DNA of 64,000 bases from Octopus vulgaris. Lineage: Eukaryota. Each line of letters begins with the position of its first letter. Within the stretch, counting starts at the first letter, position 1. The stretch spans positions 120,342,001 through 120,406,000 of the forward strand of contig OX597815.1 of the NCBI GenBank assembly GCA_951406725.2, read 5' to 3'. Positions 3,803 to 63,099 of the stretch are shown piece by piece. The notes under the pieces were generated by a model. It saw only the letters and a program-made list of their open reading frames with translations. It did no database searches and was not told where the DNA came from. The translations under genes and the position numbers were made by a program.

Positions 3803-4358
3803 ACATCATTAACTGGTTGTTAGAACAGGTTTGAACATTTTAATAAACCGTTTTTCTTTCATATTTCTTCCAACCTTACTTGTGTTATGTAGTTTGTGGA
3901 AATGAAAAATTAGGAACATTTTCTAACCACGTGTTTCTATATGTTCGCTCAATAGTATTTGGTGAACATTAGTGTTCCGGATTTGTTGTCTGTGGACTCG
4001 TGAGCGTTCCGATAACGCATTCCCTGTCTCGCCAATATATAGTTCCTCGCAATTCAGGTATTTAGTGCAGTAGATCAAATTTCTGCTTTTGCAGTTCATA
4101 TCTACATTTGCGAAAATCTGTCCATTTTTTTGTTCTGATGGATCTACCAGTATGCATGTATTGACACGTTTCACATCTGTTATCATTACACTTGGATACT
4201 GTGAATGCTTTATCCCGTTCATGTCGAATTTTGCTTTTGCTAATAGTTTTTTTTAGGTTATGTGGTTACCTTTAGGTTATATGGTTGCAACATATTAAAA
4301 TGTTAAAACCTGTTCTGAACGGAAATAACAACAATGATATAACAACCAGTTAATGATG
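3803..4358 (-). pseudogene. Penelope-like element fragment, GIY-YIG endonuclease, with inverted terminal duplication
   Basis: ORF 3923-4222 has CKSRNLIYC...C.ELYIGETG..LSER...H; 3803-3844 is repeated inverted at about 4294-4358. Confidence 0.8.
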
Positions 4359-6363: not shown

Positions 6364-6526
6364 AGGCGAAGAGGTGGATGTGTGGTAAGTAGCTTGCTTA
6401 CCAACCACATGGTTCCGGGTTCAGTCCCACTGCGTGGCCCCTTGGGAAAGTGTCTTCTAGTATAGCCTCGGGCCAACCAAAGGCTTGTGAGTGGATTTGG
6501 TAGATAGAAAATGAAAGAAGCCCGTC

Positions 6527-23624: not shown

Positions 23625-24352
23625 ACAAGCCCAGAGACCCAATTTTGATCTATATCTACTGTGGCTTGCTGTCAGTAAATAAATACTATAGAGCTCAGTG
23701 TATTGATTTGTCTGCAGTTCTCTCAGGCTTAGGCACTTAATTCCTGATCTATTCGTGCTGTGGTTTGCCGTCAATGAATAAATATTACAGGGTTCAATGC
23801 GATGATTTGCCCGCGAGCCTCTCTAACCTCTCAGGCTTAGGGACCCAATTCTGATCTATCTATACTGTGGCTTGCGGTCAATGAATAAATATTACAGGGC
23901 TCAATTCATCGATTTGCCCGCGGGCTTCTCTGACCTCTCATGCTTAGGGACCCAATTCTGATCTATCTATACTGTGGCTTGCCGTCAATGAATAAATATT
24001 ACAGGGCTCAATTCATCGATTTGCCCGCGGGCCTCTCTGACCTCTCATGCTTAGGGACCCAATTCTGATCTATCTATACTGTGGCTTGCCGTCAATGAAT
24101 AAATATTACAGGGTTCAATGCGATGATTTGCTCGTGGGCCTCTCTGACATCTCAGGCTTAGGGACCCAATTCTGATCTATCTATACTGTGGCTTGCCGTC
24201 AATGAATAAATATTACAGGGTTCAATGCGATGATTTGCCCGCGGGCCTCTCTGACCTCTCAGGCTTAGGGACCCAATTCTGATCTATCTATACTGTGGCT
24301 TGCCGTCAATGAACAAATACTACAGGGGCCCGGTACATTGATTTGTCCGGGA
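23625..24352. repeat. 107-bp tandem repeat, about 6.5 units
   Basis: cttagggacccaattc recurs at 23836, 23943, 24050, 24157 and 24264. Confidence 0.95.
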
Positions 24353-30592: not shown

Positions 30593-30734
30593 CATTCGAT
30601 CCTTTTTCCAAGAAATCTAATGCTCATAGCTTAGTTTTTTCTGGGAGCTGGCCAGATCGGAGCAATCTCAAGATTAATTATCCGAAATTGCGAGGATGAT
30701 CCGGTTCTTGACTGAAGATTAGAGGCTTCGAATG
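30593..30734 (+). ncRNA. Non-circularly permuted hammerhead candidate, family B
   Basis: GCAAU-C 30662-67, UCAAGA/UCUUGA stem I, GAAA-UUGC 30684-91, CUGAAGA 30712-18; stem II degenerate. Confidence 0.65.
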
Positions 30735-31780: not shown

Positions 31781-32180
31781 AAGGTGAAGAGCTGGCAAAA
31801 TCATTAGCACGCCGGGGGAAATGCTTAGCGGTATTTCGTCTGCGTTACGTTGTGAGTTCAAATTCCGCCGAGGTTGACTTTGCCTTTCATCCTTTCGGGG
31901 TCGATAAATTAAGTACCAGTTACGCACTGGGGTCGATGTAATCGACTTAATACCTATGTCTGTCCTTGTTTGTCCCCTCTGTGTTTAGCCCCTTGTGGGT
32001 AATAAAGAAATAGGTATTTCGCCCGTCTTCATGTTCTGAATTCAAATTCCACCAAGGTCAACTTTGCCTTTCATCCTTTCGGGGGTCGATGAAATAAGTA
32101 CCAGTTGAACTTTAGAGTCGATGTAATCGACTAAACTCCTCTTCTAAAACTGCTGGCCTTGTGCAAAAATTTGAAATCAG
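31781..32180 (+). mobile_element. SINE S1 with internal partial tandem duplication
   Basis: Full unit, then restart at ggtatttcg after aaagaaata. Confidence 0.8.
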
Positions 32181-34577: not shown

Positions 34578-34810
34578 CTCCTTACCTTCGTAACGCGAAG
34601 TAGATAAAACAGGGGACAACTGATGAAGAGAATGTTCTTTTTGTTGTACGTCTCGTGTCTGTTTTTTTTCGTTTTTCGAAAAATAGTTCGTTTTCTATGT
34701 TTTTGTTTTTTTATGTTCTCGTTTCTCATTCTGTCCACGTTCTTTTTTTGATGCCCTGTACCCATATATGCATGTATATATACATATATATGTAGGTATG
34801 TACATATATG
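34578..34810 (+). mobile_element. 5'-truncated family A repeat (half of the permuted HHR plus conserved tail)
   Basis: CCUUC-GUAA..GGACAA-CUGAUGA-AG, then tail gccctgtacccatatatg. Confidence 0.55.
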
Positions 34811-37354: not shown

Positions 37355-37480
37355 GCCTGCTCGCTTAGCCAGCAGGGTGGCGTCATTCGAAGGCTAAAAC
37401 AATGCGAACGCATTGTGACCAGCGATGTGTAACTACATCTGATGGACTGGTCGGTCACGTCATCACGTGATATATATATA

Positions 37481-38452
37481 TGCATGTATATATACATGTA
37501 GATGTAGGTACGTACATATATGTATGCATATATTTTATTTATTACATTATTGTATGACTGAGCGCCCTCGCGTCGATTCGATTCGATTCGTTTCGTTTCG
37601 TTTCGTTTCTTCTTCTCCCAGTACATTTTTTGTATATAATTATGACGCGAAACTCTATACCTCTTTACTTAACCTTCCCTTCTCTCCCTTTCTCTCTCTC
37701 TCTCACTCCTCCTCATCTCTCTCACAGCCGTTTGTCTTCCTCTATCTCTCTCTCCCTTTCACTCCTCCTCATCTCTCTCACAGCCGGCCAAATACTTCCT
37801 TTTGCATGCGGCCTCCTAACTGTAAACACACGGTTTTCTTGCGCTCCTTGAATCTCTCCTCGTCTAGGCAAAAAAGGCCCTCTTTGGTTGTTTTCTTGTT
37901 TGTTTTTATTTCTTGTATTGTATTTTTTTGTAATTGTATTTTTATTTTGTATTTTATTTTGTATTTTATTTTGTAATTTTATTTGTATCGTTTTCACGAC
38001 CTGTTTGCGTCACATTTTGTTCTTTCCTTGTTTTTACCCCTCTGCGAAGTAATTTTCTTTAATTTTTTCGCAGGAAGGGCTAGTTCGACGAGTTGTGTTC
38101 TGTCCTCACCTTCGAAACACGCTGGAGTTGAACTAGGGACAGCTGATGAAGGGGATTTTTCCTTGTGTAGTTTGTCTTGTACTATGTTTTTTCGTTGTAA
38201 AAAAAGGTCCGTTCCATGCTTGTTTTTACGTTTTCGTTCTCGTTGAATTCTGCGTCTATTTGTGGTGTCCTGTACTCACGTATATATATTTATATATGCA
38301 TGTATTTATACATGTAGATGTAGGTACGTACATATATGTATGTATGTATGCACATATTTTATCTATTACACTATTGTATGACTGAGCGATCTCGCGTCGA
38401 TTCGATTCGATCCGTTTCGTTTCGTTTCGTTTCTTCTTCTTCTCCCAGTACA
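37481..38452 (+). mobile_element. Non-coding element with about 150-bp terminal direct repeats (unit about 820 bp), family A
   Basis: 37481-37625 is repeated at 38297-38452; contains the permuted HHR. Confidence 0.75.
38037..38154 (+). ncRNA. Non-circularly permuted hammerhead candidate, family A
   Basis: UGUGU-U 38094-99, CUGUCC/GGACAG stem I, GAAGG/CCUUC stem II, GAAA-CACG 38114-21, CUGAUGA 38143-49, 10-bp extra helix. Confidence 0.75.
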
Positions 38453-38455
38453 GTT

Positions 38456-38514
<59 letters not shown>

Positions 38515-41780: not shown

Positions 41781-42189
41781 CCATGGACGGAATTTATAAA
41801 TATTTTAATGCAGCACTCCGCACGTTTCCACAAATCTTACGATCATAGTATTCCTGGGATGATTACACTACAATCCGTCGTATCCATTGACAGCGGGTGG
41901 ATCTGACTTCATGCCTTCGTTTCATCAGGCGGTATGGCATTGAAGTTGGAAGCAACGAATGTATAATTGAAGGATGAAAACTGATAAACATCCTTTAGGT
42001 TATACATTCGTTGCTTCCAAATTTAATGCCATACCGCCAGATGAAATGACGGCATGAAGTCGATCCACCTGATATCAATGGATACTCTGAATTGTGTAAT
42101 CATCCCAGGAATTCGGTGCGTGATAGTTTGAAACATGAGACTCGCGCGTAGCGATGCATTAAAATATTTATAAATTCCATTCATGGATT
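41779..42189. repeat. Diverged inverted repeat with degenerate hammerhead motifs in the arms
   Basis: About 185-bp arms; CUGAUGA...GAAAC on the minus arm, CAGAUGA...GAAAC..GUA on the plus arm. Confidence 0.7.
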
Positions 42190-49640: not shown

Positions 49641-50223
49641 AGCTAAGGTATCCTGATGCTTCTGAGCAGAAGGAAGACAATGAATCTGCTCGCTGTTACT
49701 TTAGTATAACGCGGAGCCACTGATTTAGGATTGGAGTTGATATGCAGTTGTGAATATGGGAAAATAGTAGGAAAAAGTGAGTGCGGTATCACTTTTGTGT
49801 ATGAAGTTGTGGGGATATGTGTAAAGATTGCGTATGTATAGATTAAGAAGAATAGGTGAGAGGAAGGATCTTTGCGGTAGTCCATTCGGAAAATTACAAA
49901 GAAGTGTTGCTTGGCGATCTGTTAAATTTATGGTTATTCTATGAAGTATTTATATGTGCTAACAGGATGTGTAAGCTTTAAATGTAATAGCATATTTAAT
50001 TACGAAACTGATAACCAGTTAGGAATGTGAACACATATAACTGTCTCAGTTTATGCTTCAATTAATTCACATGCTCGTCAGTGATCTCAGTTTAATTTGT
50101 TGCCGGTCGCATTGTAAGTTAAGCTTGACTAATCGCTTTGCATCGCATCCAACCTTCTGATCAAACATAGACATGTTTACACTGCTTTCTTTTTCAATCT
50201 ACTGACATTATTTGTTCGCAACT

Positions 50224-50620
50224 AAGGCGGTGAAGTGACAGAATTGTTAGCACGCCGGGCAAAATGCTTAGTGGTATTTCGTCTGCCGTTACGTTCTGAG
50301 TTCAAATTCCGCCGAGGTCGACTTTGTCTTACATCCTTTCGGGGTCGATTAATTAAGTACCAGTTACGCACTGGAGCCGATATAATCGACTTAATCCGTT
50401 TGTCTGTCCTTGTTTGTCCTCTCTGTGTTTAGCCCCTTGTGGGTAATAAAGAAATAGGTATTTCGTCCGTCTTTACGTTCTGAGTTCAAATTCTGCCGAG
50501 GTCGACTTCGCCTTTCGTTCTTTCGGGGTCGATGAAATAGTGCTAGTTACGTACTGGAGCCGATATAATCGACTAGTCCTGCCCTCCAAATTTCAGTCCT
50601 TGTGCCTTTCGAAGAAACGA
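50224..50620 (+). mobile_element. SINE S1, partial tandem form
   Basis: 16-bp TSD ttatttgttcgcaact on both sides. Confidence 0.88.
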
Positions 50621-52237: not shown

Positions 52238-52375
52238 TTTTTTCGTTCGGCGTCAACAGCCCTTCTTATCTTGTTTTTCCCTGTCCCGTCTTTTACTGTT
52301 ATATTTTTTTACTGTTTATATTTTTGTACTGTCGTTACTGTCCTGTTTTTTTACCATTTTTTTACCATTTTTTAC

Positions 52376-52506
52376 CCCTCTGCGAAAAGATCTCAGAATT
52401 CTAATTGATTTGCTTTTCGCAGGAAGGAAAGTTTCTTGTCGAAGATACGTCTCGCTTTTATCCTTCGAAACGTAGAGTAGATGAAACCTTAGCGACTGAA
52501 GAAGGG
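52376..52506 (+). ncRNA. Non-circularly permuted hammerhead candidate, family A, intact core
   Basis: UACGU-C 52446-51, UCGCU/AGCGA stem I, GAAGGA/UCCUUC stem II, GAAA-CGUA 52467-74, CUGAAGA 52496-52502. Confidence 0.8.
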
Positions 52507-52714
52507 TTTTTTTCGTTGTGCTAATTGTCCTGTACTCCATTTTTTGTTGTTTTTTAAAAAATGTCCAGTTCCTTTGGTTTGTGTCTATGTTTTCGTTTCT
52601 CTTTGTGTTCGACGTCCCTTTGGTGTCCTGTACTCATATATGCGTGTATATGTACATGTAGAGGTAGGTACGTACATATATGTTTATATATATGCATATG
52701 TTTTATTTCATTTA

Positions 52715-52763
<49 letters not shown>

Positions 52764-52942
52764 TAAATATACATACATATAGGCACAGGAGTGGCTGTGT
52801 AGTAAGAAGCTTGCTTCCCAACCACATGGCTCCGGGTTCAGTCCCACTGCGTGGCACCTTGGACAAGTGTCTTCTACTATAGCCTCGAGCCGACCAAAGC
52901 TCTGTGTGTAGATTTGATAGACGGAAACTGAAAAAAGTCCGT

Positions 52943-53003
<61 letters not shown>

Positions 53004-53047
53004 TATATATAAATGAAAGAATGGAGTCGAACGAAAATGTTAAGAAA

Positions 53048-53145
53048 ATTCCTTTACTCTCGACATATGTTTCGAAGACCACATGGTTTCATTCCAAAGG
53101 AATAAAGGGTGTATGATGCAATCTTCTCGTCAGGAAAGAAAGGGA
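53048..53145 (-). ncRNA. Type I hammerhead in the inverted pLTR, intact
   Basis: CUUUC-CUGACGA-GAAGAUUGCAU..AUGUGGUCUUC-GAAA-C-AUAU-GUC-GAGAG. Confidence 0.85.
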
Positions 53146-53417
53146 GCCTCTCTCGGCAACAAGACAAAAATTTCGATGACTGTCTACATGGTAAACAAAA
53201 ATATTAGATAAGTATATCCCTATATTAATTAATAAATTAAAACTTAGCTTATGGTCCAATTCTGTTCAAGTCGTAGATTGGTTCACTTCTATTACTGATA
53301 AGGCCAGCACTAAATTTATCCAATTCGATATATCTAGTTTCTATTCTTCAATCAACCCTATTATACTTAATAAGGCCCTATGGCACGCACACAATAAGGC
53401 AGGCCTCTTCAATTAAT

Positions 53418-55124
53418 GTGATATTGACTGCTAGGAAATCCTTCATCCAGTTCGATAGCAAGTTGTGGGTCCGCAGAGATACCCCTAATGCGTTCGATAT
53501 ACTAATGGGAAGTACAGACAGCGCCCAGATAGCCGATTTGGTCGGAATTTATATTCTTTATGAAATGGCCGACCAATTCCCGGACATCTGTGGAGGTCCT
53601 TATCGCGACGATTGTCTGCTTTACCTCCAAAATGTCTCGAACCAAAAAATACAGAAGGTTAAAAATAGATTAGTTAGGTTTTTTGGTAGAATGGACTTGC
53701 ACATCGTTTTTGACGATGAGTTAACTAAAGCCAACTTCTTAGACATTACCCTCAATTTACAAAATAACTCATACTTCCCTTACCATAAACCCTCCACAAA
53801 TCTTAAGTATATTAGCCTTTACAGTAATCATGCCAAGCCCGTTACCGATAATTTAGTCAAAAACATATCTTTGAGAAATTATTCTAAATTATCTGCCAAT
53901 GTTGACATCTTTAACCAAAAGGCAGGCTTTTATAACGCCGCCTTGGCAAAAGCCGGCTATAAGGACAAAGTGTCATACATAGATTCAGCTCATTCTAAAC
54001 CAATATCTGCTTCTCCAGATAGAATAGTTACTTGTAATAGGAATAGTAGTTCTAATTCTAGTAGTGCCAGCAACACTATGCAAAATATAAATTCTTTACG
54101 GACCAGGGGAGGTAAGCGCCGTTCAACCCCAAATTTTCAACCCAGTAATTTTCCCCTTACTTTCACAAATAACTCTACGTATAAGTCAAAGGCCACTAAG
54201 AACCGTATCTGGTTCGTAATACCTTTCAGTAAACAAATTAAATCGAACCTTCCCTTACAGTTCCGTGAAGCCGTCGCTAGGAACTTTCCCAGAAATTCTA
54301 GATATTATTCTATTATCAATTCCCACATAGTCAAAATCGCTTTCTCTAACACTAGAAATCTTTCACAAATTATATCTTCTCACAATACCAAGCTGATAAA
54401 TAGAGATTCTTCACCCGGGAGTTCCAACATAAATCTTACTAATTCCAACCCATCATACAGTCATACTAATAGGAATAGTATTAATAGTAATAGCAATGGT
54501 AGTAGCGATAGTGTTAACAATGATAATATTAATAATAGTATCAGTCGTGTTAATAACAATGGTAATGTTGATAGTGATAACAATAACGGAGAAATTACTG
54601 ATTGTATTACCATTAATAATACTAATAATAATACGAATAGTGTAGTTGCTAACGCTAATAATAATAGTAACAACAATCATAGCAATAAAAACTTCGTTTC
54701 GATCTCGGAGGACAACCCCAACAGAATTAAATTTTTGTCTAGTAATTCTAAGATCGAGAATTCTATTTACCAGTGTAGAATCTCCCCTGGTACCAATGTC
54801 TTCTTCTATATAGGAGCGTCCTCTTCCCAGTTATCCAAGAGAATTTCAAACCATTATTCAACATTCAGGGATAGTAAAAAACGACATAGTACAGGGCTAA
54901 GTAAATTAGTTTGGCGTCTTAAAGACAATAATATAGATTTCAAGTTAAATTGGTTCATACTGTCTATATCCTTTCCTTTTGATAAGGGCAGGAGATTTTG
55001 TAATATTTTCAACTCTGAGCTCTTCCATATCCTCTTCTCTAAGGTTCCTCTTGTAAACACACTCATAGAGAAATCCTATAAATGTAAGCACTGGCAGAAA
55101 CATACTTTTTACTCTTACAAATGA
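53418..55124 (+). CDS. PLE reverse transcriptase / GIY-YIG endonuclease (truncated, frameshifted remnant)
   Basis: MGS..SAQIADL, YRDD, FLDI, SNH, SIYQ..YIGAS, R..NH; the upstream FDISSFYSSI motif lies in another frame at about 53231-53416. Confidence 0.9.
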   Translation: MILTARKSFIQFDSKLWVRRDTPNAFDILMGSTDSAQIADLVGIYILYEMADQFPDICGGPYRDDCLLYLQNVSNQKIQKVKNRLVRFFGRMDLHIVFDDELTKANFLDITLNLQNNSYFPYHKPSTNLKYISLYSNHAKPVTDNLVKNISLRNYSKLSANVDIFNQKAGFYNAALAKAGYKDKVSYIDSAHSKPISASPDRIVTCNRNSSSNSSSASNTMQNINSLRTRGGKRRSTPNFQPSNFPLTFTNNSTYKSKATKNRIWFVIPFSKQIKSNLPLQFREAVARNFPRNSRYYSIINSHIVKIAFSNTRNLSQIISSHNTKLINRDSSPGSSNINLTNSNPSYSHTNRNSINSNSNGSSDSVNNDNINNSISRVNNNGNVDSDNNNGEITDCITINNTNNNTNSVVANANNNSNNNHSNKNFVSISEDNPNRIKFLSSNSKIENSIYQCRISPGTNVFFYIGASSSQLSKRISNHYSTFRDSKKRHSTGLSKLVWRLKDNNIDFKLNWFILSISFPFDKGRRFCNIFNSELFHILFSKVPLVNTLIEKSYKCKHWQKHTFYSYK

Positions 55125-55351
55125 TTACGATAGGCATCGTGCTTTGAACAATTAGGCTAACATACACTCCACTTCAATAGTGAAATTCTTTCCTAAGCCT
55201 TTGAACATTCTTAATCATTCCTTTAACCCTTCTCTTCCTACTATCTAACTTTGACGTCAAATCTTCTAACGTTTTTTTAAAAAAATCACTTATTGTCGTT
55301 TTGTTAACCATGTAGACAGTCATCGAAATTTTAGTCTTGTTGCCGAGAGAG

Positions 55352-55452
55352 GTTCCCTTTTTTTCCTGATGAGAAGATTGCATCATACACTCTTTATTTC
55401 TTTGGAATGAAACCATGTGGTCTTCGAAACATATATCGAGAGTAAAGGAATT
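55352..55452 (+). ncRNA. Type I hammerhead in the 3' pLTR
   Basis: CUGAUGA 55366-72, 11-bp stem II, GAAA 55426-29, AUC triplet with a C-A mismatch in stem III. Confidence 0.75.
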
Positions 55453-55626
55453 TTGTTAACATTTTCGTTCGACTCCATTCTTTCATTTATTCATATATAA
55501 CACACAAATTTCTGCAAATGAACCCGGAGTTTCAACCGTGTTTCTGACGCGAATTTGCTACCCTGGTATCGGTTCAACGAATTTTCCATGCTGTTGATAA
55601 ACATAGGATAATTCATTCACCTATTG

Positions 55627-55692
<66 letters not shown>

Positions 55693-55790
55693 CAAAATGG
55701 GACAAGAACGCAAAACATCCGGACAACAAGGTGATACAAAAAGGGACAACAAAACATCTAGATAGACGATACAAAAAAAAAGGATGGGTC

Positions 55791-55930
55791 ATTCAAAGCT
55801 TTCTATCCTCAGTCAAGAACCGGATCATCCTCTCAATTTCGGCTGATTAATCTTGAGATTGCTCCAATCTGGTCAGCCCCAAGGAAAACTAAGCTAAGAG
55901 CATTTGATTCCTTGGAAGAAAACATCGAAT
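55791..55930 (-). ncRNA. Non-circularly permuted hammerhead candidate, family B, intact core
   Basis: GGCUG/CAGCC stem II, GCAAU-C, UCAAGA/UCUUGA stem I, GAAA-UUG, CUGAGGA, 13/14-bp closing stem. Confidence 0.78.
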
Positions 55931-56008
55931 GTATACGAAAACAAGGACGGAAAAACAGACGATGTTACACGAATATAAATACAAAATACAATAATATTAA
56001 TATATATT

Positions 56009-56124
56009 GATCCTCTATAAATCCAAAATTTTATATTAGAATTTATGGGAGCAACTTTCTTTGAAGGCTCATATAGTTGTTGAATGCTCGAAATAAGGAG
56101 TAGATAGACAGCTGATGAAGGGTC
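56009..56124 (+). ncRNA. Permuted hammerhead candidate, diverged family A-like copy
   Basis: GAUCCU/AGGGUC, CUAUAAAU/AUUUAUGG, GAGCA/UGCUC-GAAA, UUGUU/GACAG-CUGAUGA; one extra nucleotide at the cleavage site. Confidence 0.6.
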
Positions 56125-56213
56125 GTTTCTCTGTGTTTCCTAGTCCTGTTTTCCATTTTTCTCATTGTTTCGTGTTATTTGTACCATTGGTGACGTCCTG
56201 TACATATATGTGC

Positions 56214-56275
<62 letters not shown>

Positions 56276-56277
56276 TT

Positions 56278-56383
56278 GGGGCTGGCCAGATTGGAGCAAT
56301 CTCGAATCTCGAGTATAAGCAGCCGAAATTGCAAAGATAATCTGGAACTCGACTGAGTATAGAAAACTCCGAAAGACCGATCC
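56278..56383 (+). ncRNA. Permuted hammerhead candidate, family B, truncated and mutated
   Basis: GGCUG/CAGCC, CCAGAUU/AAUCUGG, GCAAUC/GAAAUUGC, UCGAG/CUCGA; core reads CUGAGUA; 7-nt duplication. Confidence 0.6.
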
Positions 56384-56434
56384 TTGTTTTCTTTGTATCG
56401 TCTGTCTGGATGTTTTGCGTTCTTGTCCTATTTT

Positions 56435-56534
<100 letters not shown>

Positions 56535-59744: not shown

Positions 59745-60326
59745 CTTTTCTACTTTAGGCACAAAGCCCGAAATTTTGGGGGAGGGAGCCAGTCGATTAC
59801 ATCGACCTCAGTATGCAACTAGTACTTAATTTATCGAACCCGAAAGGATGAGAGGCAAAGTCGACTTCGGCAGAATTTGAACTCACAACGTAACGGCAGA
59901 TGAAATACCTATTTCTTTACTACCCACAAGGGGCTAAACATAGAGTGGATAAACAAGGACAGACAAAGGGATTAAGTCGATTATATCGACCCCAGTGCGT
60001 AATTGGTACTTATTTAATCGACCCCGAGAGGATGAAAAGCAAAGTCAACTTCGGCGGAATTTGAACTCACAACGTAACGGCAGACGAAATACCTATTTCT
60101 TTACTACTCACAAGGGGCTAAACACAGAAGTGACAAACAAGGACAGACAAACGGATTAAGTCGATTATATCGACTCCAATGCATAACTGGGACTTAATTT
60201 ATCGACCCCGAAAGGATGAAAGGCAAAGTCGACCTCGGCGGAATTTGAACTCAGAGCGTAACGGCAGACGAAATACCGCTAAGCATTTCGCCCGGCGTGC
60301 TAATGTTTATACCAGCTCGCCGCCTT
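59745..60326 (-). mobile_element. SINE S1 with three-fold internal tandem
   Basis: Three aaagtc(g/a)ac(c/t)tcggc.gaatttgaactc blocks. Confidence 0.85.

Positions 60327-62431: not shown

Positions 62432-63099
<668 letters not shown>

Follow-up and report, generated by a model that had tools for sequence, protein, structure and literature searches.

A hammerhead-like motif in animal repeat DNA whose stem II strand probably lies upstream of a core opened between A9 and G10.1

Seven copies of a hammerhead-like motif, four of family A and three of family B, lie in the window (the whole 64-kb stretch of DNA analysed here) with their blocks in the non-circular order S-G-C. The best reading of these copies, held with good confidence, places the 5′ strand of stem II upstream, although a weak downstream stem II is possible in family A. 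Such a wiring had been proposed in the initial annotation on the ground of covariation, and the pairs on which it rests could be verified: in the copy at 56009-56124 the strand UGCUC (56085-56089), just before GAAA, forms five Watson-Crick pairs out of five with GAGCA (56049-56053), and the corresponding partners are GAAGG/CCUUC at 38143+ and 52496+, and GGCUG/CAGCC in family B at 55812- and 56353+. More tentatively, we propose from the sequences that the motif could be a seventh layout beyond the six block orders regarded as exhaustive, its core being opened at A9/G10.1 by a perfect four-way junction, and that it may work as a two-part device, the arm tip of each repeat unit docking on the junction of its neighbour, which would cut only tandem (full-cycle) retroelement transcripts. 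This layout would be shared by at least two unrelated-looking families and by thousands of related contigs, from runs labelled with three organisms.

The window is animal DNA rich in microsatellites, which dominate the repeat-finder output; a repeat near 6400 hints that the animal may be a cephalopod. Listing all CUGAnGA sites with their flanks, together with a self-comparison of the 64 kb, brought out four families of hammerhead-like repeats. Families A (38143+, 52496+, 34620+ and 56112+) and B (30712+, 55812- and 56353+) both have GAAA upstream of CUGAnGA, and the self-comparison gave no sequence alignment between them. Within family A, relatedness was detected by nhmmer from the 52k to the 56k copy with an E-value of 0.027, and at the 3′ ends with an E-value of 1.6e-9 (copies are called here after their position in kilobases). 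Profile searches of the 64-kb window revealed no additional A or B copy. With the Rfam covariance models, no hammerhead match reached the gathering score in the whole window, and hammerheads are absent among the 24 matches up to E 10 in 52300-56500. Families C (30248+ and 37048-) and D (55366+, 53133-, 62866+ and 62704-) resemble by eye ordinary minimal Penelope hammerheads. In both C sites an additional A separates A9 from G10.1, and in the 37048 copy stem II, GAGC/GCUC, has the letters of stem II in the 56k subfamily of A, a possible hint at the origin of family A. Natural intact copies of A and B are about 130 nt long. Apart from the 56k copy, which is detailed below, the copies are laid out as follows.

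38037..38154, + strand: family A, all helices present; P0 5 bp, P4 8 bp, stem II 5 bp, helix 'I' 10 bp, stem III 5 bp, stem I 6-7 bp; predicted cut after U38099 (GUU)
52376..52506, + strand: family A, all helices present; P0 4 bp, P4 10 bp, stem II 6 bp, helix 'I' 2+5 bp, stem III 5 bp, stem I 5 bp; predicted cut after C52451 (GUC)
34578..34626, + strand: family A, 5′-truncated; GUAA replaces GAAA and the upstream part is lost
55798..55923, - strand: family B; P0 7 bp after U-U, P4 8 Watson-Crick pairs, stem II 6 Watson-Crick pairs, helix 'I' 6/7, stem III 4/5, stem I 6 Watson-Crick pairs; predicted cut after C55857 (AUC)
30601..30725, + strand: family B, stem II broken
56280..56359, + strand: family B, 5′-truncated; stem II 5 Watson-Crick pairs, helix 'I' 7 Watson-Crick pairs, 7-nt duplication in stem I, G8 changed to U

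Stem III and P0 of the B copy at 55798..55923 are better paired when 55833 and 55922 carry the letters of the subfamily majority. Three elements are packed within 55690-56440, namely this B copy (-), an A copy (+) head to head with it and, behind a TA run, the truncated B copy (+). The 7-nt duplication in stem I of the latter (56296-56359) is a tandem one, and loose contig ends show that relatives in its subfamily have an intact CUGAnGA.

The complete set of hammerhead core letters (C3-U4-G5-A6-N7-G8-A9, G12-A13-A14, A15.1-U16.1 and H17) is found at 30712+, 38143+, 52496+ and 55812-, and stems I and III closing the cleavage site have 4-7 bp in four copies. The 56k copy keeps the core letters too, and the exceptions are the 34k copy (GUAA) and 56353+ (G8U). 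All catalytic positions, U16.1, a non-G N17 and G10.1-C11.1 are retained in A and in B. In either family the cleavage block precedes GAAA, which in turn precedes CUGAnGA. In the B copy, N7 is the sole CUGAnGA position with a variant among the listed contig differences, a hammerhead-like pattern. A descriptor made of stems I and III plus the core in S-G-C order gave four strict matches in the window (30712+, 38143+, 52496+ and 55812-), whereas a match to 56112+ required the tolerance of an additional base. Over 200 block-wise dinucleotide shuffles, the mean number of matches per window was 0.025 in the strict form and 0.05 with the extra base, and an upstream stem II of at least five Watson-Crick pairs was seen in none of the 200. 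A MAFFT alignment of five copies leaves the helices out of register, and pairs were therefore counted by coordinates. Relatives were also sought elsewhere by pattern scans. Viral contigs gave 34 and 36 loci, and the S-G-C descriptor matched none of 34; metagenome contigs gave at least 118 loci in 7 of 64 parts, and a relaxed descriptor matched 4 of 188 loci, all weak and chance-like. These scans say little on absence, since the collections are poor in animal DNA and the patterns are specific to family A.

The upstream stem II amounts to 25 Watson-Crick pairs out of 25 over five of the six copies holding both strands, in three sequence versions, and a sixth pair is present in the 52k and 55.8k copies. 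The exception among the six is 30712+ of family B, where stem II is broken (two Watson-Crick pairs and one G-U among the first five); 34620+ of family A is devoid of the upstream part. G10.1-C11.1 is constant, and positions 2-5 of the stem vary on both strands between versions. In the alignable 38k and 56k copies, three stem II positions are changed on both sides. When the 39-nt upstream zone was shuffled, a run of five Watson-Crick pairs occurred with a probability of 0.019 (38k), 0.034 (52k), 0.008 (56k) and 0.059 (55.8k); the first two values are not independent of each other, the 38k and 52k copies sharing one version of stem II. The agreement between A and B may reflect convergence or deep divergence, with only about three independent versions at hand.

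A stem II 5′ strand placed directly after A9 or within 1-2 nt of it, as in the hammerhead class, is not seen. At offset 0 after A9, no downstream pair forms in any of five copies. At offset 1, the 38k, 52k and 56k copies of family A show 4, 3 and 4 pairs, of which 2, 1 and 2 are Watson-Crick, and the fourth of these pairs changes on both sides, from G-C (38k) to U-G (56k); in family B, CAGCC finds no pair at offsets 0 and 1. Folding with the core strands forced single gives the upstream pairing a probability of 0.99-1.00, and the downstream one 0.000, in four of five copies. Unconstrained folding gives the upstream stem II a probability of at most 0.01 in the three A copies, and of 0.96 in the 55.8k copy of B.

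The bases that follow the core in the flagged copy, AGGGUC (56119-56124), had been assigned to a helix with GAUCCU (56009-56014), and this helix, P0, is indeed found there with five Watson-Crick pairs and one G-U. The order of elements along the chain is P0, P4, stem II 5′ strand, helix 'I' 5′ strand, stem III 3′ strand, cut, stem I 5′ strand, a linker of 3-5 nt, stem II 3′ strand, GAAA, stem III 5′ strand, helix 'I' 3′ strand, stem I 3′ strand, CUGAnGA and P0 3′ strand. P0 has 5, 4 and 6 bp in the 38k, 52k and 56k copies, 7 bp after one U-U in 55.8k, and 5 bp after two in 30k. Its 5′ strand abuts hairpin P4 (8-10 bp), whose 3′ strand in turn abuts G10.1, and all links from A9 to P0, P4 and stem II have 0 nt in the 38k, 52k and 56k copies. 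With the A9-G12 pair as a fourth arm, P0, P4 and stem II would therefore form a linker-free four-way junction at A9/G10.1. The three helices II, P4 and P0 came out in register in 6, 2, 1 and 7 of 20,000 shuffles of a 94-nt upstream zone (38k, 52k, 56k and 55.8k, respectively), by criteria that were set post hoc and that allowed the B copy one U-U skip.

Helix 'I' has 6-10 bp in six copies, and in all six only 0-1 nt separate its start from the preceding upstream strand, and its end from the stem I 3′ strand that follows; the linker between stem I (5′ strand) and stem II (3′ strand) has 3-5 nt. In type-SGC RNAs, one strand of helix 'I' follows the stem II 5′ strand and the other precedes the stem I 3′ strand (PMC10085705). 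Since helix 'I' trails here the upstream strand and not the downstream one, its position further supports the upstream stem II. A G-A pair lies in the internal loop beside stem III in every copy (6 of 6), and the loop reads GAAGA/GAGUA in the 52k copy and in the subfamily majority of the 56k copy. This symmetric 5x5 purine loop, kept in the two A subfamilies (52441-52445/52475-52479 and 56063-56067/56098-56102), looks like a loop E submotif with tandem G-A. As for the earlier proposal that two helices are inserted at A9/G10.1 and that the RNA ends leave there through P0, it is favoured by the three versions of stem II changed on both sides, by the zero-nucleotide junctions and by the position of helix 'I'; it falls short of proof, with a downstream alternative of 3-4 pairs standing against it in family A.

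In the flagged copy the elements are distributed as follows, all on the + strand.

56009..56014, +: P0 5′ strand GAUCCU, where the RNA enters; pairs with 56119-56124
56015..56048, +: hairpin P4, outer stem of 8 bp (56015-56022/56041-56048), with no linker to P0 or stem II
56049..56053, +: stem II 5′ strand GAGCA, G10.1 being 56049; five Watson-Crick pairs with 56085-56089; no alternative letter among the listed rows
56055..56060, +: helix 'I' 5′ strand, joining the outer ends of stems I and II; pairs with 56106-56111 in 5/6 positions, 6/6 with the majority letter at 56057
56061..56067, +: purine-rich internal loop separating helix 'I' from stem III, 5′ side; the majority letter at 56067 gives a tandem G-A
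56068..56079, +: block S, with stem III 3′ strand 56068-56072, predicted cut after A56073 (AUA) and stem I 5′ strand 56074-56079; the stem I partner is missing
56085..56097, +: block G, with stem II 3′ strand UGCUC, GAAA 56090-56093 and stem III 5′ strand
56098..56111, +: internal loop, 3′ side (56098-56105), and helix 'I' 3′ strand (56106-56111), followed by a predicted loss of about 7 nt that takes in the stem I 3′ strand
56112..56118, +: core CUGAUGA, C3 to A9
56119..56124, +: P0 3′ strand AGGGUC, directly after A9, where the RNA exits

This copy had been described as carrying an extra nucleotide at the cleavage site and as possibly dead. The extra nucleotide is a misreading, in which the helix 'I' strand GACAG (56107-56111) was taken for stem I; the real event would be a deletion of about 7 nt together with substitutions. 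The stem I register UUGUU/GACAG with an extra base was rejected: it has three Watson-Crick and two G-U pairs at the wrong spacing, and GACAG has a 6-bp partner at 56055-56060 in the subfamily. P0 was likewise considered as the true stem II and discarded, with no GAAA behind its 5′ strand in the 56k or B copies. The suspicion that the copy is dead holds for a different reason, namely that it lacks stem I through the deletion; from GAAA to CUGA it counts 18 nt, versus 24-25 in the four copies with intact cores. It is very likely an inactive, decayed member of a family that appears intact.

Contigs of four coded runs were aligned to 55690-56200 at 80% likeness (12,116, 12,628, 7,761 and 2,123 contigs). 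This depth gives no copy number, but about one contig in ten is at least 99% identical, a scarcity which indicates that both elements exist as many diverged copies. The RNA origin of the smallest run (X10, 2,123 contigs) is a guess, and its contigs were not taken as expression. In run X1, 60 contigs (agreement 0.72) carry extra letters ending in CGACAA just before CUGAUGA. With these loose-end letters and the subfamily majority letters, stem I has six Watson-Crick pairs and stem III five, with the single A56073 between them; the stems closing the cleavage site, which are lacking in the 56k copy itself, are thereby present in its subfamily. Contig piece 24 spans the site with 7 more letters and 7 gaps, and together with the 18-nt spacing it puts the deletion at about 7 nt. 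On the other side, the long pieces 8 and 23 run across the site without net gain, and the difference table has no insertion at 56112, so that this size is an estimate and other copies may share the loss.

Of 60 rows of contig differences, 40 are listed, and 11 of these lie within 56009-56125, where they spare the stem II strands, the core and P0. As an independent check of the predicted fold, the six letters that are near-fixed, at 89-99% in both X1 and X4, were compared with it: at five positions a Watson-Crick pair takes the place of a mismatch or wobble (56057 in helix 'I', 56095 in stem III, 56075 and 56078 in stem I, 56035 in P4), and the sixth, at 56067, gives a tandem G-A. Among the minor rows, 56062 betters a pair, 56038 and 56040 are unpaired, and 56125 (40%) removes a G-U that borders P0; the variant at 56111 (19-34%) disrupts a pair, as expected of contigs misplaced across the deletion. 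The letters of these differences are unlinked.

The mechanism that we prefer combines this wiring with self-cleavage of the intact copies, most likely in trans, when the arm of one of them docks on the junction of a tandem neighbour, the flagged copy being decayed; judged from the sequences, it comes a little short of an even chance. A lone copy would fold without pseudoknots, as a multiloop closed by P0 and holding P4 and one long arm composed of helix 'I', the G-A-rich loop and stem III. Helix 'I' and stem III make up one arm because the two ends of a type-SGC RNA are joined here. The cleavage site, GAA and two strands (stem I 5′ and stem II 3′) would lie in the loop at the tip of the arm, and their partners, namely stem II 5′ and stem I 3′ with CUGAnGA, would stay single-stranded. 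The P0/P4 stack would keep A9 beside G10.1 across the break, in the fashion of a four-way junction, and the core would form once the tip loop pairs with the two free strands. The minimum-energy and centroid folds of the 38k copy are this nested monomer. The fold z-scores are unremarkable (-1.26, -0.31, -0.78 and +0.28), and that of the 56k copy is -2.94.

Within one copy, such pairing would force an arm that is anchored by both strands into a U-turn, a geometric difficulty that the initial annotation does not mention. With two copies, helix 'I', stem II, the core and stem III would stack straight, one copy acting as the enzyme and the other as the substrate. In a rough geometry, assuming 2.8 Å per base pair and 6.5 Å per nucleotide, a coaxial helix 'I' leaves a gap of 50-62 Å to the end of stem III, versus a link reach of 26 Å in B and 32 Å in the 38k copy; a helix 'I' folded back leaves 23-28 Å, just within reach. 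Docking in trans is favoured over a strained monomer since the coaxial gap exceeds the reach of the shortest links. A coaxial stack of this kind exists in the solved pseudoknot hammerhead, where the extra helix past stem II lines up with stems II and III (PMC11300833), and Penelope hammerheads are reported to function as dimers within tandem repeats (PMC4209133, PMC6765202). Against docking in trans, published type-SGC RNAs are reported to cleave during transcription with a link as short as 0 nt (PMC10085705). A symmetric dimer with two cores was rejected by reasoning, as two straight stacks cannot close a ring, and one core at a time is assumed. Cutting in trans would process head-to-tail transcripts of a Penelope-like element, or of a non-autonomous derivative, into unit-length RNA.

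With the same wiring, a single copy might also fold as a multi-pseudoknot monomer and cleave in cis, its arm turning sharply at the G-A-rich loop, which we consider unlikely but worth serious attention. The GAAA-CUGA spacing stays within 24-26 nt in A and B alike, as would be required for a tight fit inside one molecule, the links can span the fold-back gap, the copies in the window are mostly solitary, and type-SGC RNAs of about 80 nt are reported to cleave co-transcriptionally at 0.007-0.19 per min (PMC10085705). However, stem III is joined to helix 'I' by short links of 3 + 6 nt in B and of 4 + 5 nt in 38k, and their G-A pairs would continue the helix. Helix 'I' is moreover tied to stems I and II by 0-1 nt, which, by analogy with the solved structure, favours coaxial stacking away from stem III (PMC11300833). 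The short link of the RNAs of Eckert et al., as far as their text could be consulted, is left unexplained by the authors, and the word 'dimer' occurs in the supplement only within a reference (PMC10085705).

The preferred reading, upstream wiring with docking between copies, must also be weighed against explanations that give up the wiring or the cleavage. The motif could be an ordinary type-SGC hammerhead with an intact block C, in which stem II lies downstream after an extra A, and the upstream strand with P0 and P4 acts as an off-switch hiding the strand before GAAA. Such an arrangement is improbable. It draws on the A-GGG that follows the core in three of the four A copies and offers 3-4 pairs; an unpaired base between positions 9 and 10.1 is a conserved trait of Penelope hammerheads (PMC4209133), seen in family C too, and natural stems II may be as short as 1-2 bp (PMC3088659). 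Yet in family B the base after A9 is U or A and CAGCC lacks a downstream partner, half of the downstream pairs are wobble, and the kept A-GGG is accounted for by P0. Moreover, with helix 'I' trailing the upstream strand, the SGC contact between stems I and II would be lost. A hammerhead-derived structure that does not cleave, for example a dimerisation or protein-binding signal of the retroelement RNA whose catalysis was disabled by the A9/G10.1 break, seems quite improbable. In its favour, A9 adjoins G10.1 in the solved core (PMC11300833), and Penelope hammerheads are described as cleaving poorly in vitro, other functions not being excluded there (PMC4209133); what it leaves unexplained is the retention, in A as in B, of the catalytic positions, U16.1, the non-G N17 and G10.1-C11.1 beside a freely variable N7. 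Decayed AT-rich repeats might also pair by chance, as could be argued from the few independent versions, the post hoc junction criteria and the unremarkable z-scores, but this explanation is largely refuted and hardly credible given four descriptor matches for 0.025 expected, and given subfamily majority letters that restore pairs predicted from other copies.

The repeats around the A and B copies give some indications about the host element. Both families show 5′ truncation, TA-run insertion, inverted neighbours and a duplicated 3′ tail, features that match the insertion pattern of Penelope-like elements as described in PMC8557442. The 38k copy lies in the following unit.

37470..38465, + strand: 816-bp unit with the 38k copy; 180-bp direct terminal repeat at 37470-37638/38286-38465 (88%), hence a partial (1.2-unit) tandem

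This partial tandem makes tandem transcripts plausible, and no complete A or B tandem was found in the window. No reverse transcriptase or nuclease frame is attached to A or B in this window either. The Penelope-like host of A and B is therefore a putative one.

Several other repeats were noticed in the course of the analysis. A 568-aa frame with an Asn/Ser-rich stretch (53418-55124, +) resembles the C-terminal part of a Penelope-like protein. Its nearest Atlas clusters carry HTH_animal, RVT_1 and GIY-YIG (score 0.94-0.97), with no Pfam match for the frame itself, and it is flanked by inverted D hammerheads (53133- and 55366+), not by A or B, within inverted repeats at 53000-53200/55299-55499. 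Family D hammerheads also sit in each arm (62704- and 62866+) of a near-perfect 233-nt inverted repeat with 1 nt between the arms (62552-63018). At about 3930-4110 (-), a broken GIY-YIG-like nuclease fragment (YIGETG) ends at a TATG microsatellite, with no hammerhead core behind it. A long hairpin at about 41900-42060 (-), with CUGAUGA in one arm and no hammerhead layout, is probably a small inverted-repeat element. Tandem arrays occupy 23720-24327 (107-bp unit, 5.7 copies) and 59791-60277 (184-bp unit, 2.6 copies), the region of the 184-bp unit having inverted matches at 31843-32084 and 50222-50539.

Among known hammerheads, the nearest are the type-SGC RNAs (HRIMA-1 and variants; Eckert, Friedrich, Weinberg and Weinberg 2023), which share with A and B the S-G-C order, the full core, helix 'I' and a short linker (3-5 nt here, typically 3 there) (PMC10085705). 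Type SGC has a continuous block C, with one end of the RNA ahead of block S and the other behind helix 'I', and the authors assume at most 1-2 nt inserted beside CUGAnGA (PMC10085705). In A and B, by contrast, the junction of those ends closes the internal loop, and the opening of the chain, by way of P0, is at A9/G10.1, with P4 as a second hairpin. An uninterrupted block C is thus not what is found here, the Watson-Crick partner being upstream in five of six copies, with the weak downstream option in A. The origins differ too: type SGC comes from a metatranscriptome screen near hairpin ribozymes (PMC10085705), A and B from animal repeat DNA. We would therefore file the A/B motif as hammerhead-like, nearest to type SGC but a variant apart from it, as it appears to lack the unbroken block C.

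The minimal hammerheads of Penelope elements (Cervera and de la Pena 2014) resemble A and B by their 3′-end position in repeats that are 5′-truncated, TA-inserted and partly tandem or inverted, by their tolerance of an insertion at 9/10.1, by the kept G10.1-C11.1 and by the dimeric action proposed for them (PMC4209133). They are, however, of type I with a tiny palindromic stem III and one base at 9/10.1 (PMC4209133), whereas A and B have the S-G-C order, a 5-bp stem III and two helices at that place. The animal non-LTR retrozymes likewise have a non-coding low-GC unit with one hammerhead and a head-to-tail arrangement (PMC7229834; bioRxiv 10.64898/2026.07.22.740005), recalling the 816-bp unit and its 180-bp repeat. 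Retrozymes have type I hammerheads in tandem units of 150-450 bp (PMC7229834), and A and B, which are not of type I and show only the 1.2-unit tandem, fall outside this group. The pseudoknot hammerhead of PDB 8YDC (Zhan et al. 2024) also has an extra helix beyond stem II, with II as a pseudoknot, but its A9-G12 and G10.1-C11.1 are contiguous, without helices in the core (PMC11300833). Neither A nor B shows such an arrangement, in which a loop pseudoknot on helix IV stands in for helix II and A9 directly adjoins G10.1. The pseudoknot hammerhead itself reportedly goes back to Weinberg et al. 2015. A full-text search of the literature, which covered few subscription papers, found no hammerhead broken by helices at A9/G10.1 and no S-G-C order in an animal genome; in the same search 'type-SGC' occurs only in Eckert 2023, and the phrase 'A9 and G10.1' is absent. 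A 2026 paper mentions known hammerhead variants that bear extra helices or are permuted in other ways; two of the three works it cites for them are Eckert et al. and Weinberg et al. 2015 (PMC13725137). The available part of the third (PMC10162972) holds no such description of inserted helices.

The catalogue of six orders of three blocks assumes an uninterrupted strand from CUGAnGA to stem II (PMC10085705). If the A/B RNAs cleave, this assumption would fail, and descriptor searches would have missed a whole class. The S-G-C order would then extend from metatranscriptome RNAs to animal retroelement DNA, and the hammerhead core would offer a new entry point for engineering. Docking in trans also gives a testable account of the short link, which Eckert et al. 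were unable to reconcile with the crystal structure (PMC10085705). Lastly, some Penelope-like clades are reported to contain halves of hammerhead cores that fit no descriptor (PMC8557442), and the wiring with an upstream stem II gives a concrete pattern to seek in such clades.
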